This document shows, piece after piece, positions 1-3,595 of a stretch of DNA of 3,595 nucleotides. The notes beneath the pieces are model-generated. The model was not told the DNA's origin and made no database searches. It was given only the letters and a program-made list of their open reading frames with translations. Every line of letters begins with the position of its first letter. Position 1 is the first letter of the stretch. The position numbers and the translations under genes are program-made. This stretch comes from Escherichia coli (lineage in GTDB: Bacteria > Pseudomonadota > Gammaproteobacteria > Enterobacterales > Enterobacteriaceae), in NCBI RefSeq assembly GCF_003334305.1, contig NZ_QOWS01000052.1. One strand, written 5' to 3'.

Positions 1-135
1 TTACATAAGATCATTGATACTCAACGTATCGACATGATCATTGTTGATGAAGGCATTCCTGCGGATAGTCTGGAAGGCTTGCGAAAGGCTGGGGTTGAAG
101 TGATTCTGGTCGGGGAGCTCGCGTCTTCGCTGTGA
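1..135 (+). CDS. agaR: 3' end (last 44 codons plus TGA) of a DeoR-family sugar-responsive transcriptional repressor, AgaR-like; 5' part lies upstream of the window
   Basis: Frame 1 is open from base 1 to TGA at 133-135 and reads [44 protein letters not shown], a typical C-terminal end of a DeoR-type effector domain. The symbol rests on memory of E. coli AgaR and on convergent synteny with a garD-like gene; not verified by search. Confidence 0.55.
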
Positions 136-140
136 TTCAC

Positions 141-171
141 TATGCCCGATAAACAAGCGTTATCGGGCATA
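141..171. terminator. Perfect 12-bp inverted repeat (TATGCCCGATAA / TTATCGGGCATA, 7-nt loop) between convergent genes; probable bidirectional terminator
   Basis: 141-152 pairs exactly with 160-171. It lies between the + strand stop at 133-135 and the - strand stop at 198-200. There is no long T tract on either side, so the assignment rests on position and stem length. Confidence 0.5.
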
Positions 172-197
172 ATACAACTTAATGTATGAAGAGAATA

Positions 198-1354
198 TCA
201 GGCCACCGGTGCCGGGTTAAACACTGCCAGCTGGTTATGCAATCCCCATTGATCCGAGATGGTTTTCTTCTTCCCGCTGGCGACGTCGAGAATAAAGTGG
301 AACAACTTCCAGCCCACCTCTTCAATGGTCTCTTCGCCGGTAGCGATAGTGCCTGCGTTAATATCCATTAAATCAAACCAGTGGTTCGCCAGCCCGGTGC
401 GGGTCGCCATTTTAATGACGGGTACCTCCATCAGGCCGTACGGCGTACCACGGCCGGTCGTAAACACTTGCACGGTGATACCCGAAGCCACCTGTTGCGT
501 GCCACAGACAAAATCGCTGGCTGGCGTCGCGGCGTAAATTAATCCGCGTTTAGTCGGGTGTTGACCGGGCGACAGCACTTCAACAAGTGCGGTTTTACCC
601 GATTTAGCAATGGAGCCGAGTGCTTTCTTTACCACGTTGGCGAGGCCGCCCTTTTTGTTGCCCGGCGAAGGGTTGGCGCTGCGGTCGGTTTTGCCCATAT
701 CGGGATAGTTATCGTATCAGGCCATCTCTTCGAGCAGACGCCTGCCCACTTCTTCATTGATGGCGCGTGGCGTTAACAGATGAATGGCGTCGCGTACTTC
801 AGTGACTTCGGAGAACATCACCGTTGCGCCGCAGCGCACCAGCAGGTCAGAGTCGTAGCCGACAGCGCGGGGTTAGTGGTAACGCCGGAGAACGCGTCGC
901 TGCCACCGCACTGCATGCCCACCACCATCACTTCGCCACCGAAGTTTGGGTTCAGCGCAATATTATGGATGGTGCGAATTGGCACCACGGCGGCCGGTAC
1001 ATTAATCGCTACGCCACAGCCGTAGAGGTGGTTCAAGTCGACCACGCCGTCGATGCTCAGGTATTTCGGCAGCAGGTCGCGTTCGATAATTTTAACCACG
1101 TAGTCCTCAACGTCTGCCATGCAGTGCACGCTGGTGGTAATACCCAACAGGTTTTTGGTGCCCACGCTGCCGTCGGCGTTGCGGTAACCTTCAAAGGTGT
1201 AATCTTCCTGCGGCGGCTGCGGCTCCGGCACTTTGGTCGCCCGAGGCAGGGTGTTAAGCGGCGGCGCTTTCGGTAGCGTGACCGTGGATTCGTCGATCCA
1301 GCTGCCTTTGGCGACATCGCGTACCGTGTAACCGATAGCGAATGATTTCACCAT
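198..1354 (-). pseudogene. garD: Galactarate/altronate dehydratase family (GarD/UxaA-like) gene remnant, disrupted by an in-frame stop and a frameshift and apparently lacking N-terminal and internal segments
   Basis: ORFs 198-698 and 818-1450 on the - strand are in different frames. Both carry family motifs ([20 protein letters not shown]-terminal FNPAPVA; SWIDES, GYRNADGSVGTKN, HLYGCGV, MQCGGSDAFSG). Re-reading the gap in the downstream frame gives continuous protein-like sequence ([24 protein letters not shown]...LLEEMA) ending at an in-frame TGA (717-719 on +), six codons before MGKTD. The frame switch lies within 858-876. Sequence upstream of about 1355 has no family resemblance. Confidence 0.7.
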
Positions 1355-1516
1355 TATGAGGAAGGTTGTTATCCCTTTTCTGGCGTATTCGTCATTCCAT
1401 TCGTATCCCCGGTACCGGATGTTTATATCGTACAGTGCCGGTGCTGGCATGCTTTCCTGCAGGTCTGCACCGGTTTAACAAACAAAACTTAACAGAGTCT
1501 GAAGGAGTAGTATTCC

Positions 1517-1654
1517 GTGCAAATAACCGAAGCGTTACTTTCAGAGCCGGGAGATATCTGGCGTTTTGTTCAGCAGGCGGTGGACCACTGGCCGCGTCTG
1601 CTGGCAGTCCACTTCACGCGTCATTCGACCAGAGTAAATATTGATGATTACTAG
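1517..1654 (+). CDS. Candidate small ORF (45 aa, GTG start) with a strong Shine-Dalgarno; hypothetical
   Basis: GAAGGAG at 1501-1507 lies 9 nt before GTG at 1517. The ORF reads MQITEALLSEPGDIWRFVQQAVDHWPRLLAVHFTRHSTRVNIDDY with stop TAG at 1652-1654. It is below the length cutoff of the ORF track. No family recognised; it could be the N-terminal stump of a destroyed gene. Confidence 0.3.
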   Translation: MQITEALLSEPGDIWRFVQQAVDHWPRLLAVHFTRHSTRVNIDDY

Positions 1655-2127
1655 ATTCGTGTATTTTATCAGGCATTTTACTTGCGAATAAATCCCCTTG
1701 CTATCCAGCGAAACCACTCAGGTAGCTATTACCATATGTGGTAATACACTAGTTACAGGAAAAATATGCAAGTTCCGCAATACGTTGTGTGTTGCTCCTT
1801 AGCCAGGATCTTTTCTTCCATGCGAGATATGACAACAATTTTGAGGAAGGATGTTCGTAACTGGTAGAGTTACTACAACAAGCATGGGAGGCTCTGACTC
1901 TGACAGACATTGTACTGTGGAATGTTGTTACAGGTTGGGGCGGCAACCGTGCCAGGAGACCATGAGCCGTTCACGGCATTAAAGGCCACACTTCAGTCGT
2001 TTACATTCCCTATGGTGGCAGGCATCTTCCATTAAGGCGTCAGAGCGTTACCAACGTTATGTTGTCATGGCTCATCTTTCATAGTCGATGCTTATCTGGT
2101 GGCTGAAACTAGCCGCAGATAAAGAGT

Positions 2128-2560
2128 GTGAAGTTGATACCATGGAGTGGAGTGACGTGCAGGCAGGAGATTCGCTCTATGCAGGGTTGTGAGATGAATT
2201 CAAACCGGCTGGCAGCGCCAGTGATATTCGAAGATTCGTCCGGTTGTTACCCAGTATGCATTAAAAACCCAGACATTATGGACAATATAACGGCTTCTAC
2301 AACAAGGAAGTGCCTGTTTACCATCCGGGTGTAATGACTCACCTTTGTGGGCTTTTGCCCGTCGCGCTCTTAACGTTGAAGACATTCTCTGCCTGCTGAT
2401 TCAGGACTGCGACAAAAGCCATATCTGGCTACTGGTCAAGGATGACCAGCGTCTGGAGTAGGTGATAAGCCAAATAGATAAGCTGGAATATGTGGTGAAA
2501 GTGCAACGTAATCAGTCCAATCCGACGATGTTTAACAAGATTGTGGTGTTTTTTCAGTAA
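2128..2560 (+). other. Possible decayed + strand coding remnant convergent with the DeoR regulator gene; identity unknown
   Basis: An ORF at 2179-2334 (51 aa) has AGGAG 9 nt upstream of its ATG. A second frame is open 2291-2457 (…[31 protein letters not shown]), hits an in-frame TAG at 2458-2460, then continues [32 protein letters not shown] to TAA at 2558-2560, one base from the regulator stop at 2562-2564. Open-frame lengths are only weakly above chance. Confidence 0.2.
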
Positions 2561-2561
2561 G

Positions 2562-3344
2562 TCATTCGTCTTCTGAATCAGGTGTAATGATCTTTACAGA
2601 ACCATTCTGGCAGTGCGTAACATAATCTGCCGGTAACGGACGATCGCTAATCAGAACGTCAAATGCAGAGATCGGTGCGAGGCTGGCAGAGGCCACTTCA
2701 TCGAACAACGCGTGGCGGGCGAGCAAAATTTTCCGTAGTCCACGGTTCATCGCTTTACGCTTAGTGGCAAGATCTTCAGGGTTAAACCAGCTGACGCCAA
2801 AGTGATTATGCACACCGCTGGCGGAAATAAATATTTTTCGCGGATTGAGAGAGTCTAATGGCGAAGAGTTACTGGCATCGTAAAAAGCATCACTTCTGGC
2901 ACGATACGTACCACCACAAAGTATTGCTGTTACATTAGGCTTTTCATTCAACGCAACAAAGACGCGATGTGAGTAACAGATGCCGGTGAAGGTGATTGCA
3001 TCCGGGATCATGCTTATAACGAGTGGTATCTCCTGGCCATTATCAAAGAAGATCAGATCATTTTCATTAACCATTCCGGCAGCCAGAATTGCAATAGGTA
3101 AGTCATCACGATGATTTTTTGGAACGTCATGGATTACTGGCATGGATGGCGCGGGTTTATTCACCATTACAATATAGCCACCCAGTAGGGTCAGTGGCAG
3201 AGGTTCATCTTCCTGATGGAGATCGCGACGAATAGTCATTACAGAAACTTCCAGCATTCGCGCTGCGTCTTTCAAATGGATTCTGTCGGTTTTCTTAAGC
3301 AGTTCCATCAAACGTCGGATACGCTCTTTTTGCTTCGTTTCCAT
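2562..3344 (-). CDS. ygbI: DeoR-family transcriptional regulator, 260 aa (N-terminal HTH plus DeoR C-terminal effector domain); YgbI-like
   Basis: Intact 261-codon ORF in the track; the likely true start is the ATG at 3344-3342, with GGAG 9 nt upstream on the - strand. HTH signature IHLKDAARMLEVSVMTIRRDL near the N-terminus and DeoR C-domain features (DLIFFDNG, AILCGGTY, KIFISASGVH, FDVLISD). The symbol is from memory of the E. coli YgbI N-terminus (METKQKERIRRL…) and is less certain than the family. Confidence 0.85.
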   Translation of the reverse strand: METKQKERIRRLMELLKKTDRIHLKDAARMLEVSVMTIRRDLHQEDEPLPLTLLGGYIVMVNKPAPSMPVIHDVPKNHRDDLPIAILAAGMVNENDLIFFDNGQEIPLVISMIPDAITFTGICYSHRVFVALNEKPNVTAILCGGTYRARSDAFYDASNSSPLDSLNPRKIFISASGVHNHFGVSWFNPEDLATKRKAMNRGLRKILLARHALFDEVASASLAPISAFDVLISDRPLPADYVTHCQNGSVKIITPDSEDE

Positions 3345-3362
3345 CAACTCTCTCTCCGTAAG

Positions 3363-3382
3363 AATGTTATAAAAATAACATT
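3363..3382. promoter_or_regulatory. Perfect 8-4-8 inverted repeat AATGTTAT-AAAA-ATAACATT in the regulator's 5' region; candidate operator
   Basis: 3363-3370 is the exact reverse complement of 3375-3382, lying 19-38 bp upstream of the ATG at 3344. A further AACATT hexamer and a 5-1-5 palindrome AAACA-T-TGTTT occur at 3394-3404. A single IR of this size is near chance expectation for a window this long, so support comes mainly from its position. Confidence 0.3.
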
Positions 3383-3595
3383 TTGGCGTTAGTAAACATT
3401 GTTTTCATTACCATACTATACGACCGCCCCTTTGAAATGAAAAGGGTATAGGCTGCTGAGTTTTGGGCACTAATCTTGTTAGGTTGCTTATGATTAGATA
3501 GTGTTGGCCTGAGTGATGAGACTGGAAGTCTATTAAATAAACATCGGGTTGATGTGCTAATCGCGATCTCAGTCACAAATGATGCAAAAGTAACA

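Follow-up and report, generated by a model that had tools for sequence, protein, structure and literature searches.

Pseudogene remnants at a probable mosaic island junction beside the deoK operon of Escherichia coli

The deoK operon is found on pathogenicity islands of Escherichia coli and is regarded as horizontally acquired (PMC5382810, PMC7545054). The islands include PAI I/II AL862 and others (Bernier-Febreau et al. 2004, as cited in PMC5382810; PMC7545054), and the literature quoted in PMC5382810 assumes that the operon was transferred from Salmonella enterica. For the deoQKPX regulon itself, PMC2808357 refers to Christensen et al. 2003. A chromosomal counterpart exists in Salmonella, Citrobacter and related genera, where the genes are arranged in the order uhpA-deoXPK-deoQ-ilvN-ilvB. 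A third relevant group are the genes of the PF27752 family, which are abundant in E. coli islands.

Here, a 3,595-bp stretch of E. coli DNA (referred to as the window) was analyzed, the inner tract of which (positions 1355–2561) forms the left flank of a deoK module. The module agrees with the operon described on pathogenicity islands in gene set, gene order and patchy, island-borne spread. It comprises a DeoR-type regulator gene divergent from a kinase gene, a permease gene and a mutarotase gene, beside ilvN, and was identified as deoQKPX by this arrangement. According to ORF analysis and annotation, the regulator gene deoQ is intact and encodes a 261-aa DeoR-family protein on the minus strand (2562–3347). 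It is followed by the deoQ–deoK divergent intergenic region (3348–3595, 38% GC), and deoK, annotated as rbsK, starts about 55 bases beyond the right end of the window (11650 versus 11595 in the extract of NZ_CP049343.1). With the chromosomal arrangement of Salmonella and Citrobacter, the window shares convergent deoQ and ilvN genes with a 1-nt gap and colinearity over 2320–3595. In contrast, the window has no ilvB and an inactivated ilvN that starts only at codon ~17, and its segment is part of an island instead of lying between ilvBN and uhpABCT. We consider it very probable that the tract is a non-functional mosaic junction of pseudogene remnants in a genomic island, which was built stepwise.

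Several complete E. coli chromosomes are 100% identical to the window over its full length. At least 80% of the window is present in one place in 275 of 5426 complete E. coli genomes, while the tract was found in 1022 and the inner segment, searched with window positions 1892–2325 as query, in 1611 of the 5426. In the 100%-identical genomes the region to the left of the window encodes, from the far end inward, an integrase, YfjI, Gp2-type and AAA genes, an enterotoxin, malY, malX, aldolase fragments and agaR. From agaR rightward follow a garD pseudogene, a 45-aa 'UCP030791' CDS, an ilvN/ACT pseudogene, the DeoR regulator, a ribokinase-family gene, a FucP-like permease, an aldose 1-epimerase, IS200 and hypT. 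The integrase is located about 25 kb left of the window. The region has the characteristics of a genomic island: it is patchily distributed among E. coli genomes, ends at an integrase on one side, departs from the core in composition, and carries mobile-element genes and pseudogenes. IS elements are present as well, and the flanks vary between strains. The sequence-only reading had regarded the tract as a gap between two loci; however, the garD remnant, the agaR copy, the tract and deoQ all lie within one mosaic island. Relatives do carry the tract, though as island DNA and not as an ordinary colinear intergenic region. In NZ_CP049343.1 the island (2.83–2.87 Mb) is bounded by phoH at the integrase side and by hypT at the other. 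In K-12, phoH maps at ~1.08 Mb and hypT at ~4.56 Mb; the combination of these two flanks implies that the lineage of the window either underwent a large rearrangement or carries a composite island.

The GC content of the tract is 0.464, compared to 0.573 in the garD remnant (198–1340), and each of its six frames contains 14–23 stops. The initial description of a tract of lower GC content with stops in all frames is thereby borne out (46% versus 57%). However, deoQ (2562–3347) has the same low GC content (0.459) as the tract, and hence the shift at ~1340 marks the boundary between two kinds of DNA and is not a trait of the non-coding tract alone. The longest stop-free stretch comprises 94 codons, as compared to 96 ± 22 in 2000 shuffles, and thus the tract resembles random sequence. 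The longest ORF starting with ATG, GTG or TTG encodes 92 aa (1366–1644), in agreement with the upper limit of about 90 codons reported before. The ORFs had also been described as low-complexity; rather, they are merely spurious, and searches of NCBIfam and PHROGs with every ORF of the tract gave no family matches. RefSeq/PGAP annotates two features in the tract, a 45-aa CDS (1517–1654) and the ilvN/ACT-domain pseudogene (2334–2560). The tract is therefore non-coding in function, yet partly annotated. The only CDS annotated as intact is a 45-codon stub of a gene of ~180 codons.

This gene was recognized by tblastn and by a stitched translation as a full-length, decayed pseudogene on the plus strand (1517–2035), of a family seen solely as the precomputed family PF27752. 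Relatives of the family are labelled in RefSeq as YagK/YfjJ domain-containing, inovirus Gp2 family or UCP030791 putative phage-derived protein, and window positions 1366–1891 are ~70% identical to genes labelled 'YagK/YfjJ domain-containing'. BLASTP showed no similarity between the PF27752 protein and the canonical YagK/YfjJ-type (Gp2) proteins encoded nearby, and the YagK/YfjJ label is therefore not relied on here. In tblastn (E = 5e-31), an intact 182-aa homologue aligned to the window in two frames, over 1517–1726 in one and 1732–1899 in another, at 59% and 45% identity and with in-frame stops. The C-terminal third is recognizable in two further frames up to 2035, for example as GD..F.ALKAT.QS...P.V.GI.H. 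When the frames were stitched together, 99–100% of the length of the product matched PF27752 proteins of 170–182 aa (E ~1e-46). The best identity among 5.8 billion proteins was 53%, and hence no live version of this copy is found among them. Searches of NCBIfam and PHROGs with the stitched product gave no match, nor did searches of NCBIfam and Pfam-A with the intact 182-aa homologue. In-frame stops occur at no fewer than three sites (near 1652, 1752 and 1869), and the frame changes at three sites or more (near 1727, ~1900 and ~1950); only the 45-codon stub is still open. Thus, the copy resembles the PF27752 genes of E. coli islands in its full-length homology, in its upstream region with a conserved inverted repeat and in its integrase-bounded island setting, but differs from them by its stops and frame changes and by having no intact relative more than 53% identical.

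The junction and 5′ flank of this gene (1337–1516, plus strand) are 94% identical to the corresponding junction of strain FDAARGOS_1258. From 1366 on, the flank is ~70% identical to the region upstream of an intact family member. It contains the inverted repeat GCCGGTG-N(17-25)-CACCGG at 1432–1473, followed by TTAACAAA, which is kept upstream of diverged PF27752 genes and may be a protein-binding site or hairpin. Comparison with other strains revealed that the pseudogene is a recombinant of two paralogues with a crossover at 1606–1618. Up to 1606, 41 discriminating sites match the FDAARGOS_1258 copy located beside garD′, with three stray sites of the ST131 type; from 1618 on, the copy is near-identical to the type found in the ST131 deoK module. 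Breakpoints were located at 1336/1337 (garD′ to island DNA), at the paralogue crossover (1606–1618) and inside ilvN at 2320.

Between the pseudogene and the ilvN remnant lies a segment of 284 bp (2036–2319) which, in the genome search with 1892–2325, always accompanied the deoK module. This query was found in deoK modules only, apart from a patch of 130 bp on plasmids, and among the matches listed it was unannotated save in one case with an overlapping ACT-domain pseudogene. The patch (window 2118–2246) is ~74% identical to an IncI1-type plasmid spacer between a DEAD/DEAH helicase gene and trbC (positions 4001–4130 of the extracted plasmid locus). The plasmid counterpart shows no Rfam family and no convincing ORF, and the segment itself gave no protein-family match in NCBIfam or PHROGs and no match in Rfam. 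In E. coli genomes and plasmids, the search for a source of the segment yielded only deoK modules and the weak match to the IncI1 spacer. Judged from sequence, it could be the remnant or a working copy of a hitherto undescribed small mobile-DNA-associated element, for instance an RNA or a protein-binding site, and may be kept next to deoQ.

Such considerations bear on the alternative that the tract, or a part of it such as 2036–2319 or the hairpin at 1432–1473, is an sRNA or other ncRNA locus maintained together with the deoK operon. The long ORF-less tract is carried at 95–100% identity in ~1,600 genomes, the inverted repeat is conserved among paralogues, the 130-bp patch is common to the tract and IncI1 plasmids, and PAI-encoded sRNAs are described, at other positions, in a deoK-carrying island (PMC3326304, PMC7545054). 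Moreover, one 120-nt piece of the plus strand (1377–1496) reached a fold z-score of −3.9 in a coarse scan of 56 such pieces with 60 shuffles. However, a fold of 155 nt covering this site (1366–1520, 200 shuffles) gave z = −1.7, and 2036–2319 gave about −1 on both strands. The stems of the hairpin are invariant among the paralogues and hence provide no covariation. Rfam 15, a check which had been proposed with the initial description, revealed no relevant match: in the window there was no hit at E ≤ 1 save a chance match to mir-194 (20.5 bits; gathering score, 52) at 2877–2942 and thus outside the tract; the tract and the plasmid counterpart were both negative. A scan of the window for tRNA and tmRNA genes found none, and a repeat search for IS ends or att-like repeats found only short repeats at chance level. 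Consensus promoter sites (0 versus 2.1 expected) and terminator-like sites (1 versus 1.2 expected) were not above shuffles. Between E. coli lineages the tract diverges by 4.6–8.3%, at least as much as deoQ (3.8%), which appears near-neutral, as expected of unconstrained DNA, and recognizable gene remnants account for most of the tract. Taken together, an sRNA or ncRNA locus is quite improbable, and the tract is presumably without function; parts of it may still be transcribed or regulatory, for example in read-through termination of deoQ. Of the origins offered for the tract in the sequence-only reading, a decayed island and a rearrangement scar agree with these data, and the sRNA locus is unsupported.

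The right end of the tract is formed by the 3′ remnant of ilvN (2320–2560, plus strand), which encodes the small subunit of acetolactate synthase I. It was recognized by homology, by synteny and as a PGAP pseudogene, and covers codons ~17–96. In tblastn, IlvN is matched over residues 29–96 with 85–87% identity. A 1-bp deletion and a CAG to TAG stop (2459–2461) were found, and the frame begins at codon ~17 instead of extending over the complete 96 codons; thus it is a pseudogene fragment and not a gene. Its stop codon and that of deoQ are convergent and separated by 1 nt. No ilvB homology was found left of 2320, neither in the window nor in the E. coli island loci.

A scan of species-representative genomes with DeoQ yielded 42 loci. 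The deoQ-position protein beside ilvN in Salmonella, Citrobacter and others is 74–86% identical to DeoQ at the amino acid level. In most of the 42 loci, from more than 30 species of Enterobacteriaceae, window positions 2320–2700 are colinear, and the homology always ends at 2320. The colinear loci include Pseudocitrobacter, Salmonella arizonae and diarizonae, several Citrobacter, Klebsiella indica, Leclercia, Silvania and Trabulsiella. In these loci, full-length ilvN and ilvB are convergent on deoQ, with ilvB present in all loci that have ilvN and uhpA located beyond deoX in many of them, and the gap of 1 nt between the deoQ and ilvN stops is the same as in the window. At the far end of the deoK module, ST131 and E166 retain the first ~21 codons of uhpA together with the uhpA–ilvN spacer (extracts 11424–11560 and 11513–11649). 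The lineage of the window itself (NZ_CP049343.1) has only ~24 bp of this spacer left. The synteny of ilvN and deoQ together with the uhpA stub thus identifies the module as a chromosomal segment ilvN′-deoQKPX-′uhpA, in which the ilvN piece is a hitchhiker.

The deo genes are 75–84% identical at the nucleotide level to those of every species recovered, including Salmonella and Citrobacter, and therefore no close donor is found among the 42 loci; on this question the uhpA stub is not informative. The ilvN remnant is 90.9% identical to K-12 ilvN (219/241 nt), as compared to 74–83% in the species that carry deoQ (Salmonella 77%, Citrobacter and Pseudocitrobacter 80–83%). Because the stub is nearer to the ilvN of Escherichia than to that of Salmonella, it suggests an unsampled Escherichia-like donor, in which the operon once lay between ilvN and uhpA, rather than Salmonella, the source named in the literature on the island-borne operon; this suggestion is drawn from 241 decayed bases. 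That both propositions hold together, namely that the orphan segment is a small mobile-DNA-associated element and that deoQKPX came from an Escherichia-like lineage and not from Salmonella, seems quite improbable.

The same identity values could be explained if the ilvN piece had been duplicated from, or gene-converted by, the own ilvN of E. coli, which is closer to it than the ilvN of any deoQ-carrying species recovered. Yet more than 30 species with intact ilvN share the convergent ilvN′/deoQ junction and its 1-nt spacer, and the opposite end of the module is marked by the uhpA stub and the uhpA–ilvN spacer. In addition, the 22 sites that differ from K-12 lie scattered and leave no long identical patch of the kind expected after a recent conversion, and the divergence of 9% far exceeds what is seen within a species. 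An origin from the resident ilvN is consequently very improbable, and the piece is better read as the decayed end of the transferred segment.

The left part of the window carries sequences of the aga/gar neighborhood. Positions 1–135 (plus strand) are the 3′ end of agaR, which encodes the DeoR-family repressor of the aga operon and is annotated as such in the 100%-identical genomes; it is an island-borne second copy. The full island copy is 98.4% identical to K-12 agaR at the nucleotide level, ending at the stop codon, and its C-terminus reads VGELASSL* in place of VGE*. The aga/gar fragment (window 1–197; agaR copy at 7311–8200 of the NZ_CP049343.1 extract) lacks the prlF-yhaV toxin-antitoxin pair, and is thus itself mosaic, with a joint at the agaR stop. 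Positions 198–1336 (minus strand) are the remnant of a foreign, divergent copy of garD (galactarate dehydratase), which was recognized by tblastn with K-12 GarD and is a pseudogene according to PGAP. Residues 73–215 and 282–522 of GarD are matched in different frames, with a stop at 717. Codons 1–72 are missing, and an internal deletion of 218 bp, a frameshift and an in-frame stop were found. The 218 bp were lost between 10-bp direct repeats CCCACCACCA (window 908–930), whereas FDAARGOS_1258 keeps the segment together with the repeats (9781–10008 of the extracted locus); the loss is a textbook microhomology deletion. The abrupt end of dehydratase homology had been placed near 1355; at the protein level the homology ends at 1336, and the ATG at 1355 is a spurious extension.

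In NZ_CP049343.1 the native kbaZ-agaR-yhaV-prlF-garD-garPLRK locus is intact at 585–594 kb, 2.25 Mb from the island, and therefore the agaR end and the dehydratase remnant, like the rest of the window, are extra DNA borne by the island. A deletion scar at the native garD-agaR locus, in which genes were lost and non-coding debris was left, would explain why garD cut at codon 73 abuts the tract and why prlF-yhaV is missing between agaR and garD′, but is hardly credible, being refuted by this intact native locus in the same genome and opposed by the identity of only 80–90% (nucleotide level) between garD′ and the K-12/native garD, by flanks made up of island genes that reach to the integrase beside phoH in one direction and to hypT in the opposite one, and by a tract content (PF27752 gene, ilvN′) unrelated to the gar/aga neighborhood. 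An unrelated strain, NZ_CP195498.1, has lost prlF-yhaV and the entire aga cluster through an IS1-mediated deletion whose breakpoints are the 3′ end of native garD and a site within the yra fimbrial usher gene. Such an absence of prlF-yhaV-agaR beside garD was set aside as an unrelated IS1 deletion.

From the homologies, breakpoints, synteny and distribution, all of which were observed directly, we infer the following order and direction of events for a stepwise origin of the junction. A piece of ~4.75 kb with deoQKPX would have been excised from an enterobacterial chromosome by breaks in ilvN (codon ~17) and uhpA (codon ~21), and would have landed in island DNA beside a PF27752-family gene. 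The ilvN stub (2320–2560) and the island gene (1517–2035) would then have decayed by point mutations and small indels, because they were under no selection. Subsequently, the unit consisting of the dead gene, the orphan DNA, ilvN′ and deoQKPX presumably spread among E. coli islands. Finally, homologous recombination between two diverged PF27752 copies (1606–1618) would have joined the unit to another island segment, which already bore the hitchhiking agaR-garD′ fragment. Either direction fits this last exchange, of which the window may be the derived or the ancestral form.

A decayed island junction is a known kind of feature, and RefSeq already annotates the present one partly as such; its importance beyond annotation is little. 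For genome scanning, the case illustrates that pseudogene remnants at the joints of island recombination can account for a long stretch of enterobacterial DNA free of ORFs, here with the exception of 2036–2319. For the biology of E. coli, it shows how the deoK operon, a metabolic operon which promotes competitiveness in the gut and outside the intestine, was excised from a chromosome along with stubs of the genes on both sides and then moved between E. coli islands, accompanied by a dead island gene. The stubs of ilvN and uhpA are markers by which the origin of the module can be traced.
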